From a plasmid: a DNA stretch of 64,000 nt. The notes below the pieces were generated by a model. That model had not been told where the DNA came from. It did not search any database and worked only from the letters and a program-made list of their open reading frames with translations. Shown here piece by piece: positions 44,267 through 64,000 of this stretch (the first letter of the stretch is position 1; every line of letters begins with the position of its first letter). The stretch lies in the sequence record CP113993.1; one strand, written 5' to 3'. The position numbers were made by a program, and so were the translations under genes.

Positions 44267-45234
44267 CTATACAGGTGTCGGGGGCTCCCAACCCTTTTCA
44301 TCCTCCTGAAACAGTGGAGCTCTATCGCAACCAGCATGCACATTAATATAGCCGCGATAGTACTTCTCACTACCTTCGCGATGATGATCCACATCTGGCC
44401 GGGAAATAATGTAATCACCGTGACCGGTACGTTCTGTCACGTTATGCCAGGCCACCATTTCAGCAAAGACCTGATTAAACTGACGGTCATTACCTTCGGG
44501 TTCAAAGCCCATTCTGGGGTCCCGCTCAAACAATACCGGAGCAATCAGATCCAGTTTATCTGCCAGTTCGTTACGGTCATGATGATTATGGAATACCACC
44601 CTGTCACCATAATCCGTGCAGACAAATTGATCAGTCCGGCGATCGCGGAACCGGACACTGCCGTTTTTCTGCAGGCGCGCCTCCAGATCCCCCTGTTTTC
44701 ATATACCGGCGTTCCGCCAGGTTCACAAAGTATCACGCAGCGATCGGCTGTCGTGGTTCGTGACTTGTCCTTACGGCGATCGCGATAATCCCATCCACGG
44801 AGTTGCGAAACAGCAGCCCTGTCTCCCTGTACAGCCTGAGCTTCCACCCACTGGCGATATGACGAAGGATACCATTTCCCTTCAGCAATAAGTTTCTGTC
44901 GCTCATCCCTGACCTCTTCTTTAAGCCTGATCAGGGCCTGCATACGCTGCACCTCGGCAATGTGATAATGCAGCTTACGTAAAACAGGATCGTCATACTG
45001 AACACGAATATGAGACTTACGCAGACGACACGCCTGGTGAATTTCCCGGCAGCGTTCACTATAACGCAGCTCAGGTTTACGCCAATGCTCCCGCCATGCA
45101 AGATAGCGGGCACGAAGGTCTGCCCGTGCTTCTGCTCTCGCCTCGCGACGCTGACGACGCAGAACAGGATCACGCCTGCAGCTCCTCATCCTCCAAATCA
45201 TCCCGGACGGAGACATAGGATACCAGGTCTTCAA
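44267..45234 (-). pseudogene. Probable MobA-like relaxase remnant (frameshifted), downstream of mobC.
   Basis: Fragments ...ISRPDVDHHREGSEKYYRGYINVH... and a basic Arg-rich ORF. The assignment rests mainly on synteny with mobC and is weak. Confidence 0.25.
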
Positions 45235-45300
45235 ACGAAGACTTGCCGTCCCTTCTCTTTTTCGGAATGCTGCCGTTCACAATAAAACCTTAGTTTTCCA

Positions 45301-45623
45301 TTAACTGTTTACGTACTGTATTAGACAGTTCGGTGATGGCAACAAGCACACTGGCATACTCTTTGTCACCCGTTATTTTCCCTTCAACAAACAGATGCTT
45401 TTGCATCCATCCCAGCCTCATGAGTTCCTTCAGGAACTTATCATCAATTCAGGAATGTACGCGTTTGTTCAATGCCGCACTTCGTATGTAGGCAGAAACA
45501 GTAAGCCTGGCATCTTCAGCTTTTTTTCTTATGATCTCATCTTCATCGGGAGAAAACCGGACCGCTCTGAGGAGGGTCTTCTGCCGTTTTTCACTACCAC
45601 TTCTTTCTCGCTTATCACTCACG
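45301..45623 (-). pseudogene. mobC: MobC-family mobilisation protein gene with an internal stop/frameshift.
   Basis: From a GTG start with an AAGGAG Shine-Dalgarno: VSDKRERSGSEKRQKTLLRAVRFSPDEDEIIRKKAEDARLTVSAYIRSAALNKRVHS*. The next frame continues IDDKFLKELMRLGWMQKHLFVEGKITGDKEYASVLVAITELSNTVRKQLMEN (MobC RHH + C-terminal). Confidence 0.5.
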
Positions 45624-45639
45624 GTGTGCTCCTTACCGG

Positions 45640-47230
45640 GGTGTCGGGGCGAAGCCCTGACCAAGTGGTAAATGTATGGCCGCGCGTGCGCGGTTATACA
45701 TTTACACATCCTGCCCCCGGAAAGTCCGGCTGCGGGGAACAGGCCGCAGAAGTGGCTGCGGGAGGACAAACAGCAGCACCATCCGGCGCTGTGACCTTAC
45801 ACCCCTTGACATCCTCCACACCCTGAATGACGTGGATCCCTGCTACGTTCAGGCTGTCGCCTGAATCATTTCGGTGGGTTCCTGCTTCAACGGGCGGCCT
45901 GACTGCACCCTCCCTCCACAGGCAAGAACGGCGTGCCCCGCCGCTAAAATGTTACGAGCACCATTTACATCGGCGTTCGCTGTATATCCACATGCCTGAC
46001 ACTCGAATTTGCTTTGTGACGGGCGATTTTCTTTCGCTGTATGACCACAGCACACACAACGCTGGCTTGTGTACGCTGGCGGTACTGCCAGTACCTGACC
46101 GCCACGCCAGATCTGCTTGTACTCAAGCTGGCGGCGCATTTCATACCAGCCCAGATCCAGTATCGAACGGTTTAAACCTGATTTTGCCCGGACATTGCGC
46201 CCCGGCTGGCTGACCGTACCCGCTGCTGACCTGGACATGTTGCTGACCTTCAAATCCTCAATGACTATCATTGCGTGGTTTTTGCTGATTGTCGTTGTGA
46301 CTTTGTGTAGGTAGTCCCTGCGGATATTTGCGATACGGGAATGCAGGCGCTGTATTTTGCGTTTCTGCTTCTGCCAGTTGTTGCTGAATTTAACTTTGTG
46401 ACTTAACTGGCGCTGAAGTCTTGCCAGCTTTTTCTGTTTTTTCTGAAAACTGTTTACAGGCTCAAAGACTGTGCCATCTGACAGCGTGGCAAGTTTAGCC
46501 ACGCCAGCATCCAGTCCGACCATTGATACTGAAGGGTGAACAGGATCAGATACTTCACTTTCAGTCTGAATGCTGATGTACCACTTACCGTAGGACTGGC
46601 TGACTGTGACATTTTTTACAACATCCGTGACCTGACGACTGTTTCGGTAGCGCATCCAGCCAGGTTTCGGCAGAAAAATACGGCTGTTTTCCTGATCGAG
46701 CTTAACGCCCTGCGGGTAGCGGAATGCATCATTCTGTCCCCGCTTTTTGAATCGGGGAAAAGCCGCACGCTTCTGGAAGAAATTTTTGTAGGCTCGCTCA
46801 AGGTCTTTCAGTGACTGTTGCAATGGCTGTGATGGGGCATCTTTAAGCCATTGGGTTTCAGTGGCATTTTTCCACTCAACCAACCACGAGGTCATTTTCG
46901 TGTAGGAAATATATTTATTTCCGGCCTCATGATTCTCATTCTGAAGTGCCAGGGCACGATTGAAAACGAAACGACACGCACCCGCGAAGCACCTCATTTC
47001 ACGCTCCTGTTGACCATTTGGTCTTAACTGGAATTTAAATGCCTGTAGTCGTTTCATCCCGCTATTTTAAACAAAAAAAGTTAGGCGGAAAACCGCGCCT
47101 TATATCCCCGACCTGAAGGACGGGGCTTTACGGCGCACCGGGGTAAGGGTGCGGGGAGCGCCGTCACCGGCGCGACAGGGGCGGATGAACAGCACTACGG
47201 TGCCAGATAGTTTTCCTGAATCGGAAACAC
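45640..47230 (-). mobile_element. IS200/IS605-family tnpB-only element (IS1341-like) inserted just upstream of mobC. It has a left-end structured region (47060-47230) and a right end/omega-RNA region (45640-45850).
   Basis: Left end with G-rich hairpins ccccgacctgaaggacggggc.... The right end holds a long imperfect hairpin gtaaatgtatggccgcgcgtgcgcggttatacatttac at 45669-45706. An intact tnpB lies between them. Confidence 0.7.
45849..47057 (-). CDS. tnpB: TnpB (IS605 OrfB family RNA-guided nuclease), intact, 402 aa.
   Basis: [36 protein letters not shown].... A RuvC-like motif sits at ...[17 protein letters not shown].... The C-terminal zinc finger is [37 protein letters not shown]. Confidence 0.9.
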
Positions 47231-47412
47231 CTGATTGTGTTCGAACGGATGTCTGACGACACCAGATAAACCCGGGGTTAAGGGGACAAAAGAAAATAAA
47301 CCAGTGATAAAAAGTGAAGTTTTTACACTTTTTAAAAGCAATAAATACGCTTTATCGCAGGGAGAATATGATAAAATAAAGTGTAATTATTTCACTTTTT
47401 CAAAGGTGTTTT

Positions 47413-47664
47413 ATGACAGGTTGGGAGCTGCGCATCTGGAGAAAGGGGATGTGCTGGTCACGCGAAAAAGCTGCGCGGGAGTTCGGCGTAACTTTGCGGA
47501 CATGGCACGCGTGGGAAAATGCGGAACAGGTGGATGTCACAGTCTGGCGAACCACCCAGGCACTTTCTGTCCTCGACCTGTTACCGCTCATGCATCGGAT
47601 GCGCAAAACTGACATCATCACTCGTCTGGAAAATGAATTGGGGAAAACGGCAGTGGGAGTATGA
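47413..47664 (+). CDS. Small hypothetical protein of 83 aa (possible HTH) between the IS left end and the Rpn tail gene.
   Basis: ORF only: MTGWELRIWRKGMCWSREKAAREFGVTLRTWHAWENAEQ.... Confidence 0.25.
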   Translation: MTGWELRIWRKGMCWSREKAAREFGVTLRTWHAWENAEQVDVTVWRTTQALSVLDLLPLMHRMRKTDIITRLENELGKTAVGV

Positions 47665-47705
47665 ACCTTAAGAAAACAAAGCCCGGCAAAAGTGGGCGGT
47701 ACACT

Positions 47706-47933
47706 TCAGTCAGCAAATAATTTTTTCAGTTCAGCACCGGAAAGCCCGGTTGCCTGTTCAATCTGCTCTGGTGTCATTCCCATATTCCGGAGCTGTCGTG
47801 CAATAGCCTGTGCTTTTTCAGCAGCGCCCTCCTGACGACCTTCCTGACGACCTTCCTGACGACCTTCCTGGAGACCTTCCTTGCGTCCTTTCTGCTCAAG
47901 ACGTTCAGCAATAGTCATCAATTCCCCCTGCAT
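47706..47933 (-). CDS. Free-standing copy of the Rpn C-terminal tail domain (RpnS-like small protein), 75 aa.
   Basis: MQGELMTIAERLEQKGRKEGLQEGRQEGRQEGRQEGAAEKAQAIARQLRNMGMTPEQIEQATGLSGAELKKLFAD. It is ~90% identical to the last 75 aa of the upstream Rpn protein. The DNA at 47690-47935 duplicates 47985-48235. Confidence 0.5.
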   Translation of the reverse strand: MQGELMTIAERLEQKGRKEGLQEGRQEGRQEGRQEGAAEKAQAIARQLRNMGMTPEQIEQATGLSGAELKKLFAD

Positions 47934-47976
47934 GATTTTACAAAAATCCCGGCATTTGCCGGGATTTTCAGTTCAG

Positions 47977-48990
47977 TTAGTGAATAACCTTTTTCAGTTC
48001 AGCATCGGAAAGCCCGGTCGCCTGTTTAATCTGCTCCGGCGTCATTCCCATATTCCGGAGCTGTCGTGCAATAGCCTGTGCTTTTTCAGCAGCGCCCTCC
48101 TGACGACCTTCCTGACGACCTTCCTGGCGCCCTTCCTGGAGACCTTCCTTGCGTCCTTCCTCGCGACCTTTCTGCTCAAGACGTTCAGCAATAGTCATAA
48201 GTTTATCCTCATGTTGCGGCAGACGCGCAGCCAGCGCCCGCATAAATTCCGGGGAAGGTGAATCTCCCGCATTCACCATGTAATGAATCAGTACGCGTAC
48301 CTGCTCATCAGATACCATCTCCACCATTAACAGAGGGAGCTTATCCAGTAGCTCCATCAGGTCACGCTGGCGGATATGCTTCATCAGCAGTGTCAGCGCG
48401 GCCATGCGGCGATGGCACATGATGTCATCGTCATCAATGACGGTGACATCAACCAGCGGAAACGGGTTTGTATATATTTTACCCGCAACTTCCGGATTAC
48501 TGAAGCAGTCCAGCCAGTTTGTTGAATGTGGGTAGGGGCTGCGCTCTCCGTGATAGAACTGCAGCGGTATGACCAGCGGCAGCCTGCTATGCCCGGCTTC
48601 CAGGTGCCTTTGCATCGCTGCAATGGCATAACGCATCTGGCGAAACGCCATCATTTTATCATCGCTGGACTGATGTTCGATTAAAACATGGATGTATCCG
48701 TCATCGCCGTCAGTGGTTTTCATGCTCCACAGGATATCGCTGGCATACTGGCGCAGGTCTTCCTCAACGAACGTACCGGATTCCAGCTTCAGCGTGTCCA
48801 GGTTACAGACAGCCCGTAGTTCAGCCGGAAGGTGCAGTTCCAGAAAATCTCTGGCAACGTCGGGATTCGCCAGGAACGACCGGAACGCAGCATCATGCGG
48901 CGTGGGCGTTGTGGTGTTTTTCTTTTTACTCACTGTGCCTCCTGGTGAGATATCAGTACCAATCTTGCCGCCTGCTTTCGTGGACGGCAA
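47977..48990 (-). CDS. Rpn-family (YhgA-like, PD-(D/E)XK) recombination-promoting nuclease, 337 aa, with a C-terminal (EGRQ)n repeat tail.
   Basis: ...DAAFRSFLANPDVARDFLELHLPAELRA...YIHVLIEHQSS... is the YhgA-like core. The tail is ...LEQKGREEGRKEGLQEGRQEGRQEGRQEGAAEKAQAIARQLRNMGMTPEQIKQ.... Confidence 0.75.
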   Translation of the reverse strand: MPSTKAGGKIGTDISPGGTVSKKKNTTTPTPHDAAFRSFLANPDVARDFLELHLPAELRAVCNLDTLKLESGTFVEEDLRQYASDILWSMKTTDGDDGYIHVLIEHQSSDDKMMAFRQMRYAIAAMQRHLEAGHSRLPLVIPLQFYHGERSPYPHSTNWLDCFSNPEVAGKIYTNPFPLVDVTVIDDDDIMCHRRMAALTLLMKHIRQRDLMELLDKLPLLMVEMVSDEQVRVLIHYMVNAGDSPSPEFMRALAARLPQHEDKLMTIAERLEQKGREEGRKEGLQEGRQEGRQEGRQEGAAEKAQAIARQLRNMGMTPEQIKQATGLSDAELKKVIH

Positions 48991-49232
48991 GGGTTAATCA
49001 GTTTCAGGCACGTTTTATTTCAAGTGCGCGGAGTAAATGCCCCCACTCGCCTGAACGCATGGCGGGAACATGTACCCGCTGCTGTTTGCTGCAGCGTCTG
49101 ACAAGATGACAACCCGGCGCCAGGATTTCGGGGTCAATTTCATCCGGTGTCATCTGCCGCCGTGTGACGCGGGTCTGACGACGTACTTTTTTATCCTTCT
49201 GCAGACACTCTTCGCGTTGCTGCTTTACATAA

Positions 49233-51800
49233 TCAGCCATTGCCATGATAAATAACCTTACGCATTGGGTCATCCGTCGGGAATACCTTACGTTTCTTGA
49301 TGGCTGCCCGGATAACGCCGTTCAGCACTCTTATCGCGTTCGTGGTATAGATGGCCTTACGGATATCCGGCGGAAAGCCGAAGAGCGTATTGCGGTTTTC
49401 CCGGTGTACGCGCCAGCTTTTGCTGAGCTGCAGATATTTGTCATCCCAGGCACCCGCGAACACATCCAGCGCCATCAGCGTGGGGCCTGATACACCGCTT
49501 TCAGCCCACTGGTGACGGCTTTGTAGTCCTTCCGGGACACATATTTCTGACTGTCACGCACTCTATGGATGGTGCACAGCCGGATATGGATCTTCGGGTA
49601 AACGCTGTTTATCGCCACCGGGAAGCCCTTCAGACCGTCCACGCCGGCAATCAGGATATCCTCAGACCACGATTTTTAAGCTCTGTCAGCACACTAAGCC
49701 AGAACTTTGCGCCTTCATTTTCGGCCAGCCACATGCCGGGGAATTCCTTCTGGCCTCCGGTTGATACCCGGCGCGAGGACGACGGCTTTGTTTATTACGC
49801 TGCCATTCTGGCGGACTTTTACGACAATGCAGTCCATATAAACAATGGGATACAGCGCATCCAGTTGCCGGTTTTGCCACTCCGTAACCTGCTCTTTGAC
49901 GGCGTCGGTGACTTTAGATATCAGCGTGGGCGACACATCCGCGTCGTACATCTCTTTGAAGGTGGCGACGATTTCGCGGGTGGTCATGCCTTTGGCGTAG
50001 AGGGAGAAAATCTGGCTGTCCATCTGCGTAATACGCGTCTGGTCCTTCTTAAATCAGCTGCGGTTCAACGGTATTCTCACGGTCACGCGGTGTGTTCAGC
50101 TCTGTCTTGCCGTCATCGTAAAGCAGCATTTTTGACGAATAGCCATTGTGGGTATCAGAGCTTTTCTGGGGGCGTTTTTCTCGTGCCCGGGATGGTCGGT
50201 CAGCTCAGCATTTATCCCGGAGTATTTCATATCCTCTGCAGTATTTTGTACTTAGTAGTAAGGCTCCCCGTCAGCTTTATCAATCAGACCATCAGCGGAA
50301 ACCATTGTCACTGTTCATGGGGTCTTCGGAGCGTTATTTTGGTTGAAGACGGTAAACAACAAAGCGACTGATAGTCTTTTATATTCTTTATCAATCAGGT
50401 CAACTTTAAGTTTAGACTCCATCTCTGGTTTCTCGTCTCTCGGTACCAGTGAGCTGCGAAACCGTGGAGTTGTAGGCGTCCTGATAGCTTGAGTGAATGG
50501 GCTGACTGGCTTCCCAGTGGCAATAAACAGCATTTATCCGCAGACAGAGGTACAATTATCAAATCGTGTCGCAACACCATAAAACGTTCATGGCTGACCT
50601 GAAAACCGGTTTACCGTGCAGTGGCGAAAAAGGCGGCAGAAACGGTACTGGCTGAGCTGGAGGCGAAATGGGGCCAGCAGTATGCGATCGTGTTTCTGCC
50701 GTGGCGGCGTAAGTGGAAAAATCTGTCAGTGTACTTCCGCTACCCGGCGAATATCCGCAAGGTGATTTACACAATCAACGCGATAAAATCGGTACATCGA
50801 CTGGTAAAGGCTGAAACGTAGTTCAGCGCAGGGCGTAACGACTTCCTGCTCCTTAATAATTCAGCGTCGGATATTATTGAACATATTTCCAGACCGAGGC
50901 GGGTACCTTGTCATAAAGTTTATTCATCGTTAGTTCCGCCAGCCTGTGATCAGCAGCAGAATTAAATGCTTCAATATCATCTGCTGTTAATTTATATTGA
51001 TTATGGGATATTATTTTTTCCAGTGTTTTTAGAGATGAACAGCGTCGTAGTTGATATAACCATTCCTGTTTTGTCTTTGCCATAGCAGTATTCTTACATG
51101 TGGATTTAATCGAAGCTATAATAGCTTATGGAACCCTGCCAGTAAATACAACCGTTTCGGATAAGTGATAACAGAAATAATCTGATAGGGTCCATCTTTT
51201 AATAATACCTTTTTAATTGCATGCTTTGAACAAAAGACAGCTGGTCAGATATACATACCGAAACGGAAATGACGATGGGGTATTCGACGCACCATCATCA
51301 GCCACTCACTTAATATGAAAGGGACCAGACTGGAGTCTGTCACAGTCAATATTTCTGTCAGAAGGAGAGCGTTCAGAATTCTGTGTCACGTTAAAAATTC
51401 TACAGTGTCATCACCTTATTCAGTCGCCCTTCAAAATAAATGGCTAACTGCGACAATGTCAAATTCCAGCTCTGGATTGGCATTGTCCATTTTTCCTGTG
51501 CTTTCATCAGTCCCAGATAAAGCAGCTTCAACAGACTGTTTTCATTTGGGAAAGCTCCTTTGGTTTTGGTCAGTTTCCTGAACTGCTGATGTACCGATTC
51601 GACAGCATTTGTGGTGTAAATCACCTTGCGGATATTCGCCGGGTAGCGGAAGTATGCCGACAGGTTTCCCCACTTGCGACGCCATGACTGGAGGACTATC
51701 GGATACTGCTGGCCCCATTTCGCCTCCAGCTCATCCAGCGCCGTTTCTGCCGCTTCTTTTGACACCGCACGATACCGGCTTCAGGTCTGCCATGAACGTT
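49233..51800. mobile_element. Cluster of IS256-family transposase fragments in both orientations (49233-49475 minus, 49715-50023 minus, 50621-50821 plus, 51400-51765 minus).
   Basis: ...WDDKYLQLSKSWR...IRKAIYTTNAIRVLNGVIRAAIKKRKVFPTDD...; ...YAKGMTTREIVATFKEMYDADVSPTLISKVTD...; ...AELEAKWGQQYAIV...YFRYPANIRKVIYTINAI.... These are IS256/mutator-type motifs. All fragments are shorter than an intact ~400-aa transposase. Confidence 0.6.
50874..51083 (-). CDS. hha: Hha/YmoA-family nucleoid-associated modulator, 69 aa.
   Basis: [69 protein letters not shown] matches chromosomal Hha (...[29 protein letters not shown]). Confidence 0.85.
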   Translation of the reverse strand: [69 protein letters not shown]

Positions 51801-58712: not shown

Positions 58713-59035
58713 TAAGCACTCCGGGCAGATTGTCCGGAGTGCTTTGAATGACGATTTTCTTTGGTAATGATGAAGAAGGTTGATGGTAAGGCAAATTATC
58801 CCCGCCCCTCATTAATACTCATGTAGTCAAGTCATTTATAGCTGGCATCACGGACTTCTGATCTCCCCTAGTTGCAGGTAACGACTTCAGTCCGCTGAAA
58901 GCGAAAAGCGGAAGTTCGGGAGGGTTGTGATCTACTTTTAACCTTTGTAATTTAGAAGTATTCTTTTAAGATTAATCCACTTCCCATCGTCATCCTTTCG
59001 GTGCCCGTGAAAAGCTTTTTTAAGGTTACTGCCTC

Positions 59036-61345
59036 ATGGAGTTATGGATATTTATAATAGCTATTTATTTGATTTATATTCTTTTTTTCAAAAAGAAGAA
59101 ACCTAAGTCCGCGGGCTCTTATACTTCCGCTCCTGTGAAAGCACCACCTAAAGAATGGCTTGCTAACAACAAAAAAAATCAGGCGGTAATGCACAACGAT
59201 GACAGCGAAGATGACAATCTGGCTACGTTTACACTAAGTGGCGGACGGAATGTCGAATACAGCATAACAGCCACTCAACGCCAGAATCTCTCAAAAAATA
59301 CCGGTGCTTTGGCTCGCTGGATTTTACCGGGAGAGGTGATCACAGTCGGTGGGGTAGAGGTTACCGGTGCCCACTTCTATCTTGGACAGCGTATGAAACC
59401 TGCCGGGCATAACTCAGGTGGTTATTATGATGATAGTAGCGAGGCATCGCTAATTGACGACACGCTTAAGATATACCCCACACCTTACATTTACGAAGAT
59501 AGTTCATTAGGGTATTGGCCCAGTTTTTCCTCACTTTCACCTGAAGCACGTGGTGCGTACCTGAGTTGGCTTGCCAGCGACAGATGTGACACTTCTTGCC
59601 CAATTGGTTACGTTTTTATTTATCTGTATGGTCTGGAAAGACGGGCGCTTGTTGACAGCAGGGACAACAATATATCTGACGATGAGTTCTATTCTCTTTT
59701 CAAAGAGATCTGCCGTCTCAGATCGGTTTTCAATGAAAACCGATCTTTCCGGAACTACTCGTCCCAGCTACTTGAAGCGATGTCCATTCTTCGCCCGAAC
59801 GAAAATCTTGCAGCAGCTCTCGTCAATGATTCGGAGTTCAGCAATAGAATGCAATTCAGGCTAATCCTGGCAAAGACAGTTGAGGCAGGAGCCCCGGTGC
59901 CAGCTGATCTGGCTCTGACGTGGGTGACAAACCATACTGAATACTCATTGCGAACCCCTGCCCGCCGTTGCGCGAAAGAATTTGCTGCACTTTTTAAACG
60001 GCGTTACACCCTTAAATACGGTGAAGGGATGGTAGTGAAGCCGAATAAAGCGCGTCTGCGTTTAGATTACACACCTGCAAGTCCCAGTTTGCGAGGTATT
60101 CGGCTTCCTGTTCCCGACTTGCCTGATCCAAGTGCATTGAAAGGCCCTGTTCAGCAGCTTATGACCCTTGCCGATATATGCACAGATGAACTAGATGCTT
60201 ACAGTCGTTACCTTGGTAGAAAAGGCACTTCAGCAAATGATACCGCTGCAATTTTGTTGCTGCCTTCAGAAATCGTTAACGAAAGCGCAGAAAAAATATT
60301 AAGTGCATTCAAACGCTGGGCTGATGACGCGATCCTCAGTAAGGGTGGAGTAGTTTCAGTTGCTGACTACTGGTCACATATGAATGCTACCTGTCCGGCG
60401 AAGATCAATAAAAAAGAGGCCGACTTGATGCAGGCCTTTGCACAGAAAATGGGGTACTGTCTGGCTCCTGACCCCTATTACCACCACGTAAAGGCAGATG
60501 TCGATGGTGTTCTTGTTTTATTCCCTGCAGGAGAAGGTGGACGCTTCTCACCTTCTCCTGAATTTATCACAGCTGTATTGACGCTCCGATTAGGTGCGGT
60601 AGTCGCCTTGATTGACAATTCTCTCGATCAAGCCGAACAGAAAGTGCTCGAGAATGCCATCAACAACAATGCCGGCTTCAGCGATGATGAAAAGCGCTCT
60701 CTACACGCATATTTAACGTGGCAGCTTCATACCCCGGCGAACATGACGGGAATGAAGAGCCGGATTGAATTACTTGATACTGCGGAAAAATCAGCTGTTG
60801 GTAAGGTTATCGTTAGTGTTGCTTGCTCTGATGGCAGAATTACGCCTGCCGAAATCAAACAGCTTGAGAAGATTTATACAAGCCTGGGGCTGGATCCCTC
60901 ATCCGTATCAAGCAATATCCACCAGCATTCCGCAACTGAAACTGCTCTCGTTTCATCTGTACCAGCTAATCAGTCGACGGCAGGGTTTACACTGGATGCC
61001 AACGTACTTGCCCGCCACGAATCTGCCACTGATGATGTTCGTAAATTACTGAACTCGATTTTCACTGAAGAAGAACCAGAACAACCAGAAAGCACTCCAG
61101 CCTCATTAACCGGGGAAGGGGGCCTTGACCCCGCTCATAGCCAACTTTATCGCAGGTTGCTGGAGAAAGAACAATGGTCCAGAAAAGAGGCGACAGAGTT
61201 ATGCAGTAACTGGAACTTGATGCTCGGCGGTGCGCTTGAGGTGATCAATGATTGGTCCTATGCGGTGGTTGATGCACCAGTGCTGGAAGATACTGATGAT
61301 CATATTTGGGTTGACCTGGAAATAGCCAAAGAATTAGAGGGTTAG
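59036..61345 (+). CDS. sngA: TerB-domain protein of 769 aa with an N-terminal TM anchor (SngA-like, Shango-type defence component A).
   Basis: N-terminal TM helix MELWIFIIAIYLIYILFF followed by KKKKPK. An internal TerB-like helical module reads ...AVVALIDNSLDQAEQKVLENAINNNAGFSDDEKRSLHAYLTWQL...VIVSVACSDGRITPAEIKQLEKIYTSLGLD. An acidic C-terminal domain follows. It is the first gene of a 3-gene operon with an ATPase and a helicase. The domain calls come from pattern memory, not an HMM search. Confidence 0.6.
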   Translation: MELWIFIIAIYLIYILFFKKKKPKSAGSYTSAPVKAPPKEWLANNKKNQAVMHNDDSEDDNLATFTLSGGRNVEYSITATQRQNLSKNTGALARWILPGEVITVGGVEVTGAHFYLGQRMKPAGHNSGGYYDDSSEASLIDDTLKIYPTPYIYEDSSLGYWPSFSSLSPEARGAYLSWLASDRCDTSCPIGYVFIYLYGLERRALVDSRDNNISDDEFYSLFKEICRLRSVFNENRSFRNYSSQLLEAMSILRPNENLAAALVNDSEFSNRMQFRLILAKTVEAGAPVPADLALTWVTNHTEYSLRTPARRCAKEFAALFKRRYTLKYGEGMVVKPNKARLRLDYTPASPSLRGIRLPVPDLPDPSALKGPVQQLMTLADICTDELDAYSRYLGRKGTSANDTAAILLLPSEIVNESAEKILSAFKRWADDAILSKGGVVSVADYWSHMNATCPAKINKKEADLMQAFAQKMGYCLAPDPYYHHVKADVDGVLVLFPAGEGGRFSPSPEFITAVLTLRLGAVVALIDNSLDQAEQKVLENAINNNAGFSDDEKRSLHAYLTWQLHTPANMTGMKSRIELLDTAEKSAVGKVIVSVACSDGRITPAEIKQLEKIYTSLGLDPSSVSSNIHQHSATETALVSSVPANQSTAGFTLDANVLARHESATDDVRKLLNSIFTEEEPEQPESTPASLTGEGGLDPAHSQLYRRLLEKEQWSRKEATELCSNWNLMLGGALEVINDWSYAVVDAPVLEDTDDHIWVDLEIAKELEG

Positions 61346-61348
61346 TGA

Positions 61349-62665
61349 ATGTCTGTAACACGTATAAGAGTGAAAGAGCGCGACGCTATTATTCAGTCAC
61401 TTAAGTCAGGAGTAACGCCAAGGATAGGGATTCAGCATATCCAGGTTGGCCGCGTGAATGAGATAACCGCCCTCCATCAGGATATTGAACGGATTGCTGA
61501 TGGAGGGGCGAGCTTCAGACTTATCATTGGTGAGTACGGTTCCGGGAAAACGTTCTTTTTAAGTGTTGTGCGGTCTATTGCGTTAGAGAAGAAGTTGGTT
61601 GCGGTCAGTGCAGACCTTTCTCCCGACAGACGTATTCACTCATCGGGAGGTCATGCTCGTAATCTCTACTCAGAGCTTATGAAAAATATGTCCACCAGAA
61701 ACAAACCAGATGGCAATGCGTTACTTAGCGTTGTGGAAAGGTTCGTTACTGAGGCAAGGAAGGAAGCTGATGCGAACGGCTCCCAAGTCTCATCCGTTAT
61801 TCATAAACGCCTTGCTGCTTTGTCAAATATGGTGGGCGGATATGACTTTGCGAAGGTCATTGACGCATTCTGGCGCGGGCACGAGCAGGATAACGAAACC
61901 TTAAAATCCAATGCCATTCGCTGGTTGCGGGGCGAATACACCACCAAAACTGATGCCCGTAATGATCTCGATGTCCGAACTATTATCTCAGACGCCTCAT
62001 TCTATGATTCTTTGAAGTTGATTAGCCTTTTTGTCCGTCAGGCAGGCTATGCCGGACTTTTAGTTAGCCTCGACGAGATGGTGAACCTCTTTAAGTTGAA
62101 TAATACGCAAGCGAGAACAGCCAACTACGAACAGATCTTGCGGATCCTGAATGACTGCCTGCAAGGCTCCGCCGAAAATATTGGTTTTATCCTCGGGGGG
62201 ACGCCAGAGTTTCTTTTCGATCCACGTAAGGGGCTCTACAGCTATGAGGCGCTCCAGTCGCGTCTGGCAGAAAACCGATTCGCACAGAAAGCAGGCGTGA
62301 TTGACTACTCGTCTCCCACGCTGCATCTTGCCAGCCTCACTCCTGAGGAACTGTATATTTTACTGAAAAATCTTCGTCATGTTTATGCTGGTGGAGATCC
62401 CGCGAATTATCTGGTGCCAGATGATGCTCTGACCGGGTTTCTGCATCACTGCAGCAAAACCATCGGAGATGCTTACTTTCGTACTCCCCGCAATACCATA
62501 AAAGGTTTTCTGGATATGCTAGCTGTGCTGGAGCAAAACAGAATGATGAACTGGCAAGCGCTCATCGAGGGAGTGGCGATTGAAGAAGACAAGCCCAGCG
62601 ATATGGATGACACCACTGTGGAGGAAAGCGATGACGACGACGGCCTGGCGAATTTCAGACTATGA
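61349..62665 (+). CDS. sngB: P-loop ATPase of 438 aa (DUF2791/BrxD-like; SngB-like).
   Basis: Walker A IIGEYGSGKTFFLS and Walker B LLVSLDEM. Its ~430-aa size is typical of BrxD-like ATPases. It starts 4 nt after the upstream stop, and its stop overlaps the next start (ATGA). Confidence 0.65.
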   Translation: MSVTRIRVKERDAIIQSLKSGVTPRIGIQHIQVGRVNEITALHQDIERIADGGASFRLIIGEYGSGKTFFLSVVRSIALEKKLVAVSADLSPDRRIHSSGGHARNLYSELMKNMSTRNKPDGNALLSVVERFVTEARKEADANGSQVSSVIHKRLAALSNMVGGYDFAKVIDAFWRGHEQDNETLKSNAIRWLRGEYTTKTDARNDLDVRTIISDASFYDSLKLISLFVRQAGYAGLLVSLDEMVNLFKLNNTQARTANYEQILRILNDCLQGSAENIGFILGGTPEFLFDPRKGLYSYEALQSRLAENRFAQKAGVIDYSSPTLHLASLTPEELYILLKNLRHVYAGGDPANYLVPDDALTGFLHHCSKTIGDAYFRTPRNTIKGFLDMLAVLEQNRMMNWQALIEGVAIEEDKPSDMDDTTVEESDDDDGLANFRL

Positions 62666-64000
62666 GCAGTGCCTACAATAGTCTCGATCCCCGTGTCCGT
62701 AAGTGGGTTTATAAGCAGGACTGGTCATCATTAAGGCCCTTGCAGGAGAGTTCTATTCCGGCAATTTTAGCCCGCGATCGTGATGTACTAATTAGTGCAG
62801 GTACAGCAGCGGGTAAAACAGAAGCTTTCTTTCTTCCTGCCTGTTCGGCGGTTGCAGATCTCACCGGTGGATTTGGCATTATCTATATCAGCCCGTTGAA
62901 GGCATTGATTAACGATCAGCACCGTCGTCTCGAGAGTCTTGGTGAAGCCCTGGAAATGCAAGTGACGCCCTGGCACGGGGATGTACCACAAAGCAAAAAA
63001 AAGAAAGCACGGACAAACCCGTCTGGCATCTTACTTATCACACCTGAATCACTTGAGTCTTTGCTCATAAACTCATTGGGTTGGCTCAAACAGGCGTTTT
63101 CTTCAGTGGCATACATTGTTATTGATGAGTTCCACACTTTTATTGGCTCAGAGCGTGGTATACAGCTGCTTTCTCTGCTTAATAGAATTGACCATGTGCT
63201 AGGACGCCAGTTAAATCCAATTCCCCGTGTCGCGTTGAGTGCCACGCTGGGAGAACTGGAAAAAGTGCCAGAACTATTGCGCCCGGATAAGAGATTACCT
63301 TGTGAAACGGTAACAGACAGTAATAGCACAGCCACACTACAGGTTCAGGTTAAAGGTTATCTTGAGCGGGAGCCCGAAAAAGGAGAAGAGCTCCAGAGCT
63401 CTGCCGAACAGCTCGTCTGCGCGGATATTTTCAGGCTCTGCCGTGGCGATTCCCACCTGGTCTTTGCTAACAGTCGAAAGCGTACTGAAAGCATAGCGGC
63501 AACACTGAGCGACATGTGTGAGGCAAATGTCGTTCCTAATGAATTCTTTCCTCATCATGGTTCCCTGGCCAGGGAGTTACGTGAGACGCTTGAAGCCCGA
63601 CTGCAGAAAGGGAATTTGCCCACAACCGCTGTTTGTACAATGACGCTAGAGCTGGGTATTGATATTGGTAAGGTGCAGTCGGTCATACAAGTTACACCTC
63701 CGCATTCTGTTTCCAGTCTGCGTCAACGTATGGGACGTTCAGGGCGGCGCGATTCCCCAGCGGTACTGAGAATGTTAATTACTGAACCTGAACTTACCGC
63801 AACCAGCAGCATTGTGGATCATTTACGTCTGCAGTTGGTACAGGCGATGGCAATGATCAGGTTGATGATCTCTAAACGCTGGTTCGAGCCTGCAGATGTC
63901 CGGCAGAAACATTACTCCACGCTGCTACACCAGATCCTTGCTATTACTGCGCAATGGGGCGGAGTTCGTGCCGATCAGCTCTGGTCACAACTTTGCCAGA
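62662..64000 (+). CDS. sngC: Lhr-like DEAD/DEAH-box SF2 helicase (SngC-like), 3'-partial because it runs off the window end.
   Basis: Motif I ISAGTAAGKTEAF, Ia IYISPLKAL, II IVIDEFHTF (DEFH), III LSATLG and VI QRMGRSGRR. At least 446 aa are visible. Confidence 0.75.
   Translation, partial: MSSAYNSLDPRVRKWVYKQDWSSLRPLQESSIPAILARDRDVLISAGTAAGKTEAFFLPACSAVADLTGGFGIIYISPLKALINDQHRRLESLGEALEMQVTPWHGDVPQSKKKKARTNPSGILLITPESLESLLINSLGWLKQAFSSVAYIVIDEFHTFIGSERGIQLLSLLNRIDHVLGRQLNPIPRVALSATLGELEKVPELLRPDKRLPCETVTDSNSTATLQVQVKGYLEREPEKGEELQSSAEQLVCADIFRLCRGDSHLVFANSRKRTESIAATLSDMCEANVVPNEFFPHHGSLARELRETLEARLQKGNLPTTAVCTMTLELGIDIGKVQSVIQVTPPHSVSSLRQRMGRSGRRDSPAVLRMLITEPELTATSSIVDHLRLQLVQAMAMIRLMISKRWFEPADVRQKHYSTLLHQILAITAQWGGVRADQLWSQLCQ

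Follow-up and report, generated by a model that had tools for sequence, protein, structure and literature searches.

A free-standing rpnSs-type gene beside rpn on Salmonella pESI-type plasmids: an old paralogue with an interior converted from the rpn tail

Rpn toxin-antitoxin systems are a recently recognised form of anti-phage defence. Their antitoxin is translated from within the toxin gene, which obliges the two proteins to co-evolve; a separate copy of the antitoxin portion breaks that link and raises the question of where such a copy came from and what its product could do. The copy considered here lies in a stretch of 64,000 nucleotides (nt) from the plasmid sequence record CP113993.1 (the window), in which an rpn gene on the minus strand is followed directly by a small open reading frame (ORF) that resembles its own 3' end. 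According to Zhong et al. (PNAS 2023, PMC10400941), rpn encodes a toxic nuclease, RpnL, and an internal start yields the small antitoxin RpnS, a three-helix protein with a variable number of 4-aa repeats in its long first helix. RpnS was also described there as a 'separate gene' on chromosomes and plasmids, and the downstream copies were named rpnSs, so the arrangement of rpn with a downstream rpnSs was published in 2023 and is not new in itself. A sequence-only reading of the window had taken the small ORF for a tandem duplicate of the resident tail that could be a captured antitoxin or an anti-defence decoy. The analysis showed that the small gene is an old paralogue, the interior of which was overwritten over about 180 nt by gene conversion from the rpn tail in the Salmonella clade. 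The explanation that we consider probable as a whole is that the gene is a tail-converted rpnSs paralogue of a conserved plasmid module, the product of which would act in trans as an antitoxin or modulator and would be poor on the resident toxin.

The repeated tail and the small gene

A repeat search of the window returned a direct repeat of 47722-47893 against 47990-48161, with a 172-nt ungapped core at 95% identity, and this self-comparison bore out the claim that the rpn tail is present twice. Alignment with MAFFT carried the homology to a common start, ATGACTATTGCTGAACGTCTT, located at 47918 in the small ORF and at 48198 in rpn, with one 12-nt indel. The high-identity stretch (47722-47918 against 47990-48198) measured about 200-210 nt and not the approximately 245 bp first put forward, and similarity between the two copies was weak both 5' of the ATG and 3' of the stop codon. 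The small ORF is a repeat of the last 73 rpn codons minus one 12-nt (4-aa) unit. A tblastn search of the window with its 70-aa product found the gene itself and the rpn tail alone (tail at 89% identity, E 4e-36) and no further Rpn copy.

Dozens of complete Salmonella plasmid records contained a 1.5-kb segment of the locus at 100% identity, and 104 PLSDB records matched it at 99% identity or more. Many of the plasmids with the identical segment were pESI-type megaplasmids of Salmonella enterica serovar Infantis, the type to which the window belongs, approximately 170-320 kb in size, with an IncFIB replicon, a MOBP relaxase and MPF_I, and allelic variants of the locus were present in hundreds more assemblies. 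A false duplication introduced by assembly, a concern raised by the sequence-only reading, was rejected as practically negligible in probability since more than 100 independent complete plasmid records carried the identical sequence and the two copies differed at fixed sites common to the alleles; the duplication is genuine. An exact-sequence look-up of the window Rpn and of both small-ORF versions in the protein collection gave zero identical entries.

The upstream gene belongs to the Rpn family of PD-(D/E)XK proteins, as originally proposed, with a PF04754 match at E 4.6e-81 over residues 30-227 of the 337-aa reading (profile positions 1-197 of 203) and a TIGR01784 score of 201 bits against a cutoff of 52. 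The 337-aa reading from the TTG at 48990 is probably too long by 19 aa; the GTG at 48933 agreed in alignment with the N-termini of RpnA and RpnE and with the RefSeq coding sequence (WP_023994155). From this GTG, which has an AGGAGG Shine-Dalgarno sequence, rpn (47977..48933, minus strand) encodes a 318-aa Rpn/YhgA-like RpnL. Its YASDILWS and LIEHQS motifs aligned with those of RpnA and RpnE (conserved SD..IEHQS core), and work by Kingston and colleagues in 2017 is said to have identified Asp63 of RpnA as catalytic. The window protein is predicted from its sequence to be a toxic DNA endonuclease.

Within rpn, an intragenic RpnS ORF of 73 aa is predicted at 47977..48198 (minus strand), with an internal ATG at 48198 and GAGGA at 48206-48210 (GAGGA-N7-ATG). 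The methionine at this position, M246 of Rpn, aligned with RpnA M244, which is the mapped internal translation start (iTIS) of RpnA-S. The rpn tail contained six 4-aa units, GREE GRKE GLQE GRQE GRQE GRQE (48097-48168), and the intragenic product would consist of a long helix with these six units followed by an end resembling a helix-turn-helix (HTH).

The small, rpnSs-type gene on the same minus strand can be read as 47706..47918 (70 aa) or 47706..47933 (75 aa), and RefSeq WP_023994154 corresponds to the 70-aa version. The separate ORF described by the sequence-only reading was confirmed and its start was not: the ATG at 47933, from which 75 aa had been read, is without a Shine-Dalgarno sequence, whereas the ATG at 47918 has a G-run Shine-Dalgarno sequence, AGGGGGA, at 47923-47929, and 5 nt separate its last G from the start codon. 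Met1 of the 70-aa product aligned with RpnA M244, the start of RpnA-S, and five 4-aa units followed, GRKE GLQE GRQE GRQE GRQE (47829-47888), the first at residue 11. The small protein matched the C-terminus of TIGR01784 (E 5.7e-9), its homologues were assigned to PF27070 HTH_Rpn_C in precomputed Pfam data, and it gave no match to PF14261 (DUF4351) at E ≤ 0.1. Its identification as a free-standing copy of an RpnS-type C-terminal domain thus held, and the class is the one published as rpnSs. The named members are ypaA/rpnESs after rpnE and rpnCSs after rpnC, and YpaA protein was detected by tagging (PMC10400941). From this precedent and from the Shine-Dalgarno sequence and ATG, we infer that the small ORF is translated separately.

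The AlphaFold2 (AF2) model of the small protein was of moderate confidence, with a predicted local distance difference test (pLDDT) score of 76, and had helices at residues 3-45, 50-57 and 61-69. In a Foldseek search the crystal structure of E. coli RpnA-S (PDB 7th0) ranked second with probability 0.97, 36% identity and a target-normalised TM of 0.75, but with E 0.55; no PDB match of the small protein reached E ≤ 0.001, as expected at so small a size. The sequence match to 7th0 was weak (E 0.62). PADLOC assigned no defence system and returned one weak match, in which the repeat helix hit a 'putative invertase' model.

An old paralogue with a converted interior

A 58-nt spacer separates the rpn stop codon from the small gene and contains a terminator-like hairpin at 47942..47969 (minus strand), AAAAUCCCGGCA-AA-UGCCGGGAUUUU, followed by a U-rich stretch. 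The hairpin has a 12-bp stem and a folding energy of -19.4 kcal/mol (z -5.7), and 0 of 200 shuffled sequences folded as well. It was missed by a simple terminator scan because the U-run lies inside the stem. It is kept at the equivalent place in E. coli plasmids, and an Rfam search of 45000-50000 gave nothing near the gathering score. In E. coli plasmids (L003 5118-5363; P0053, P0070 and P0096) the annotated small ORF begins at an ATG overlapping the rpn stop codon (ATGA) and runs in frame through the hairpin (MRTTKPGKMPGFFVSRSRANS-MTIAERL...); the overlap could represent translational coupling, or the annotation could be an artefact.

I-complex plasmids of E. coli, Shigella and Klebsiella have an orthologous small gene at the same position, with matching flanks, hairpin and HTH neighbour. 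The repeats of the E. coli-type small gene are of a separate type, GF[DK]E, and the gene is about 60% identical to the resident tail, the repeats of which are EGR[QM] or GIQ[QK] in these plasmids; the small genes group with one another and apart from their own tails. Orthology between the window and the E. coli plasmids extends to the hairpin, to the start region and to the flank downstream of the gene. A fresh tandem duplication of the resident tail, as the sequence-only reading had it, was rejected on the basis of these orthologues and of the mosaic interior described below. In the E. coli IncI1 contigs L021-L026 (locus 3792-4526), rpn is followed by two free-standing RpnS-like genes arranged in tandem, of which the first has EGR[QM] repeats, as seen in the tails of other plasmids, and the second has GF[DK]E repeats; a hairpin region precedes each.

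The generality of the arrangement was surveyed in a spread sample selected on the rpn N-domain alone, comprising eight I-complex plasmids (IncI1, I-gamma/K1 and K2/Z) and five other plasmids (IncF, a Klebsiella virulence plasmid and Serratia). The survey, in line with the suggestion that similar tail copies might occur at other Rpn loci, showed rpn with the small RpnS-like gene and the HTH gene in 8/8 of the I-complex plasmids and the small gene in 0/5 of the others. In a genome-contig scan with Rpn, ten loci were recovered: two I-complex plasmid contigs that have the small gene, one locus from Yersinia and seven loci without it. The Yersinia locus (L047, Yersinia alsatica) had RpnS-like ORFs at 1132-1320 and 1366-1527, upstream of a chromosomal rpn at 2501-3424, and one of them shares the repeat type of the resident tail with fewer units.

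A three-way analysis of informative sites compared the window small gene with its own rpn tail and with the E. coli small gene. Sites 5' of the ATG tracked the E. coli small-gene locus, those from the ATG to about codon 60 tracked the window's own rpn tail, and those from codon 61 (Gly) through KKLFAD and beyond tracked the E. coli small gene again. The pattern indicates that about 180 nt of the interior were overwritten by the rpn tail. The conversion tract is at 47739..47918 (minus strand), with five synonymous and one non-synonymous difference from the tail, and the 3' end of the gene (LSG..KKLFAD, with G61) together with the downstream flank (47143..47738, minus strand) is orthologous to the E. 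coli I-complex small-gene locus. Diagnostic small-gene sites (ACA, CCA, GAA (Glu), GCA, GGT (Gly) and LFAD) were present in all Salmonella alleles, so the main conversion predates the diversification of the alleles. Later changes were also seen: L027 has a lineage-specific Q-to-R change in both the tail and the small gene, the small gene of L034 is without two small-gene marker sites, and the tail of L037 has them. Patchy exchange in both directions, together with gain and loss of 12-nt units, is still going on.

Such exchange is what would be expected if the copies served mainly as recombination donors and acceptors that alter the repeat number or type of RpnL/RpnS, with the protein being secondary. 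The bidirectional patchy conversion, the near-reciprocal repeat arrays of L009 and L032, the tandem E. coli small genes of which one is of the tail type of another plasmid, and the loss of rpnSs by deletion or by fusion to the rpn N-domain reported by Zhong et al. (PMC10400941) all agree with it. The conserved Shine-Dalgarno sequence and ATG, the conserved small-gene C-terminus and a low ratio of non-synonymous to synonymous substitution (dN/dS) against the E. coli orthologue argue instead for selection on a translated product. A role mainly as a store of tails is therefore improbable as the whole explanation; it is not exclusive of the explanation preferred here and is compatible with it.

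The dN/dS between the window tail and the small gene was 0.05 over codons 1-59 (the tract) and 0.09 over codons 1-66 (past the 3' boundary), with five to six synonymous and one to two non-synonymous differences; against the E. coli small gene it was 0.18-0.20. These values are consistent with a translated gene under constraint. They bear on the further explanation that the small gene is a non-functional leftover of unequal recombination at the 12-nt repeats which is passively carried. The annotation of ypaA of E. coli K-12 as a pseudogene in RefSeq, the failure of the promoter scan to find a promoter for the small gene and the decay, in the window, of the hairpin 3' of the small gene would fit such a leftover. 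On the other side, the frame is intact in hundreds of assemblies and several I-complex incompatibility types, changes in length are always of whole 12-nt units, synonymous differences dominate and YpaA protein was detected experimentally (PMC10400941). We regard a non-functional leftover as distinctly improbable.

Repeat numbers and the possible role of the product

The number of 4-aa units was compared between tail and small gene because the window has six units in the tail and five in the small gene, and because of a published matching rule: for RpnC, RpnL was blocked solely by RpnS of equal repeat number, and one added repeat abolished neutralisation (PMC10400941). Among the alleles the tails had 2-7 units and the small genes 1-6. 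Twelve distinct Salmonella-type haplotypes had tail/small-gene counts of 6/5 (haplotypes 1 and 6), 6/4 (haplotype 2), 5/4 (haplotype 3), 6/2 (haplotypes 4 and 7), 7/2 (haplotype 5), 2/6 (haplotype 8), 6/3 (haplotypes 9 and 10), 7/3 (haplotype 11) and 5/1 (haplotype 12), and the two counts were equal in none of the 12. In the spread sample they were equal in 1/8, and there the repeat types differed.

These counts bear directly on the idea that the small protein is a supplementary cognate antitoxin, which would bind the resident RpnL despite having one unit fewer and would raise the antitoxin-to-toxin ratio from a separately controlled gene. The 95% nucleotide identity of the helix region to the resident tail, the adjacency to rpn on the same strand, the antitoxin nature of RpnS proteins and the variation of RpnL:RpnS ratios with expression context (PMC10400941) favour this idea. 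With five units against six, the published rule argues against a simple cognate antitoxin or an extra antitoxin dose, as do the 0/12 equal counts and the fact that most I-complex small genes are of another repeat type with about 60% identity to the resident tail. A cognate function is on this evidence possible but unlikely.

The reverse proposal is that the gene encodes a non-cognate orphan antitoxin, expressed early from the leading region, which would neutralise Rpn proteins of other repeat counts in the recipient or on resident plasmids and so act in anti-defence. Samuel et al. (Nature 2024, PMC11541004) found orphan antitoxins enriched in plasmid leading regions and proposed an anti-defence role for them; Rpn and RpnSs are not named in the main text of that paper. 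The position of the I-complex gene (2-3 kb from the origin of transfer (oriT), between ardA and oriT and on the strand of ardA, psiA and psiB) and the systematic mismatch with the resident tail agree with the proposal. Some small-gene arrays also equal the tails of other plasmids, that of L015 being the tail array of L007 and L037 and that of L009 the tail array of L032. This sharing is, however, equally explained by recombination history, and the oriT-nikA neighbour on pESI is a truncated remnant. A search with an artificial rpn 3' end, into which the five-unit array of the window's small gene had been placed, also returned 0 PLSDB records at 99% identity or more, so no known plasmid RpnL is an exact partner of the window's allele. 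An orphan antitoxin of this kind is quite unlikely for the window gene. The broader claim that I-complex RpnS-like genes are deliberately non-cognate antidotes, which would reach a recipient with the earliest plasmid genes and counter Rpn nucleases of other repeat lengths borne by that recipient or by rival plasmids, and maybe also tail cassettes by which gene conversion switches the specificity of the plasmid's own RpnL/RpnS pair, is held to be rather unlikely too; if it were true, the mismatch in repeat number would be a functional state and not noise.

In the explanation considered probable as a whole, the small gene would be transcribed by read-through of the rpn terminator hairpin, downstream of which no promoter-like site was seen, and would be translated from its own Shine-Dalgarno sequence and the ATG at 47918. 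The product would fold like RpnS, with one long repeat-bearing helix and two short HTH-like helices. The repeat helix may pair with the matching helix of Rpn-family C-terminal domains, by which the protein would act in trans as an antitoxin or modulator. Having five units against six in the resident RpnL and RpnS, it would probably be a poor inhibitor of the resident toxin, and an RpnL that also has five units would suit it best. The role considered most likely is that of an antitoxin-like trans-acting modulator, with either the resident six-unit toxin, bound weakly, or five-unit variants elsewhere as its partner.

Several observations weigh against this explanation. No sigma-70-like promoter for the small gene was found in a scan of 47300-49400, including the interval from hairpin to start, so that of the two expression signals considered for the ORF the Shine-Dalgarno sequence was present and the promoter was not, and the hairpin at 47942-47969 resembles an efficient terminator. 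An allele of the small protein that is common in Salmonella (P0031, 63 aa, 72 contigs) has Ile at the second Met (MQGELITIAERL), which implies that the start in that allele is either the upstream ATG or lost and makes the true start uncertain. The low dN/dS could partly stem from recent conversion by the constrained rpn tail. The matching rule comes from one experiment with RpnC and a one-unit difference (PMC10400941). Finally, about 1.2 equal counts of 12 would be expected if tail and small-gene counts were independent; zero equal counts indicate no selection for matching, yet are no proof of selection against it.

The plasmid module, its surroundings and known systems

The 80/88-aa ORF, rpn, the small gene and the convergent HTH gene form a conserved block next to oriT/nikA in the leading region of conjugative plasmids of the I-complex (IncI1/I-gamma/K/Z). 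In the window the block is bounded upstream by the 80-aa ORF (49004..49246, minus strand; RefSeq WP_023994156), which is the upstream limit of the IncI1-shared segment, and ends with a convergent 83-aa XRE-type HTH gene (47413..47664, plus strand; PF13560 HTH_31 at E 1.8e-4, under the gathering cutoff), a gene found at every I-complex locus examined. In E. coli IncI1 plasmids the gene order is psiB-psiA-ardA, followed further on by a 144-aa ORF, an 88-aa ORF, rpn, the small ORF, the convergent HTH gene, the DUF4942 gene, a 111-aa ORF and nikA-nikB. The window segment 49251-47143 was 97% identical to a Salmonella IncI1 leading region (L015 2683-4791), and 45717-45173 corresponded to the oriT-nikA segment of the same locus. 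An IS200/IS605-family TnpB gene (45849..47057, minus strand), placed by annotation and blastn breakpoints, stands where IncI1 plasmids have the DUF4942 and 111-aa genes.

On pESI the block and a truncated nikA/oriT remnant are about 2 kb apart, and the TnpB insertion stands between them. This remnant (45173..45769, minus strand) was 97% identical to L015 6539-7083 and contains a truncated NikA-like ORF at 45449-45769 with a PF21983 match at E 1.9e-13 covering profile positions 1-45 of 72. Of nikB, homology of about 100 nt is left beside it, and the oriT region of pESI looks like a remnant. An element of about 95 nt (window 45713-45805) occurs in two to three copies per IncI1 leading region (L015 1843-1894 and 4792-4884; L003 2966-3058 and 5883-5975); it has an invariant core, CTGCGGCCTGTT..GGACTTTCCGGGGG, and showed no significant structure when folded as single-stranded DNA.

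A look-up of eight small-protein variants led to 34 assemblies, 26 with 4-kb flanks and eight with 1.5-kb flanks. The 26 Salmonella and E. coli assemblies with 4-kb flanks had the same leading-region context, with rpn and the small gene on the ardA/psiA strand. Loci with 1.5-kb flanks were less uniform: L032, L034 and L035 had the rpn-small gene-HTH-DUF4942 core, L033 and L036 had the pESI-type TnpB neighbour, and in L037 an amidase gene came after a truncated HTH ORF. Homologues of the rpn N-domain (48250-48933) were found on 4360 of 72,556 PLSDB records, mainly of Escherichia, Klebsiella and Salmonella, which makes Rpn a very common plasmid gene.

Elsewhere in the window, ORF fragments on both strands at 49475-50800, directly upstream of the IncI1-shared block, resembled an IS256-family transposase when their translations were inspected by eye. 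Genes annotated for a protein with a TerB N-terminal domain, an ATP-binding protein and a DEAD/DEAH helicase lie at about 59000-64000 (NZ_CP016413.1 16625-22473), and this three-gene cluster has the appearance of a candidate defence system. Other parts of the window contain several type II toxin-antitoxin pairs (RelE/DinJ, GNAT/DUF1778, VapBC and CcdAB).

The I-complex module, the conversion mosaic and the absence of repeat matching go beyond the literature examined. Thousands of I-complex and pESI plasmids, with alleles of 0-6 units and visible conversion tracts, make up a natural data set for rpnSs in which it can be asked whether these genes serve as additional antitoxins, counteract other Rpn variants or act as cassettes for recombination. 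Since pESI and IncI1 plasmids rank among the main carriers of antibiotic resistance in poultry-derived Salmonella and E. coli, a role of the small gene in plasmid establishment would have practical interest.

Among known systems, the stand-alone RpnS-like DUF4351 (PF14261) proteins mentioned by Zhong et al. (PMC10400941) are likewise small, free-standing and related to Rpn C-termini; the window protein differs from them in having no PF14261 match, and its homologues belong to PF27070. As in the intragenic RpnS proteins such as RpnA-S (7th0), the domain is that of PF27070 HTH_Rpn_C, to judge by the assignment of its homologues, and its model of moderate confidence has three helices with the repeats in the long first helix. 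Unlike those proteins it comes from its own gene, so its sequence and repeat number are free to drift from those of the toxin tail, as was seen. The orphan antitoxins of Samuel et al. (PMC11541004) are comparable in that the I-complex relatives of the gene lie between ardA and oriT in the orientation of ardA, psiA and psiB, whereas the oriT-nikA region adjoining the window gene is a remnant.

The closest parallel is rpnE-ypaA of E. coli K-12, in which the small gene also lies directly downstream on the same strand, with its own Shine-Dalgarno sequence and a start at the internal RpnS methionine. Relative to the RpnE tail, YpaA, which starts with MTIAERL, shows a difference of one 4-aa unit and a divergent C-terminus; the window copy departs from its resident tail in the same two ways, by one unit and at the very end of the C-terminus. 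The two loci are organised differently, ypaA beginning 12 nt after the rpnE stop codon without a hairpin and the window gene following a 58-nt spacer with a strong hairpin; the window gene is also part of an I-complex module with a convergent HTH gene. RpnSs proteins were reported to group with their own upstream RpnS, which implies independent origins (PMC10400941). In contrast to ypaA, a lineage-specific duplicate, the window gene is a mosaic in which an old paralogue and the resident rpn tail are combined.

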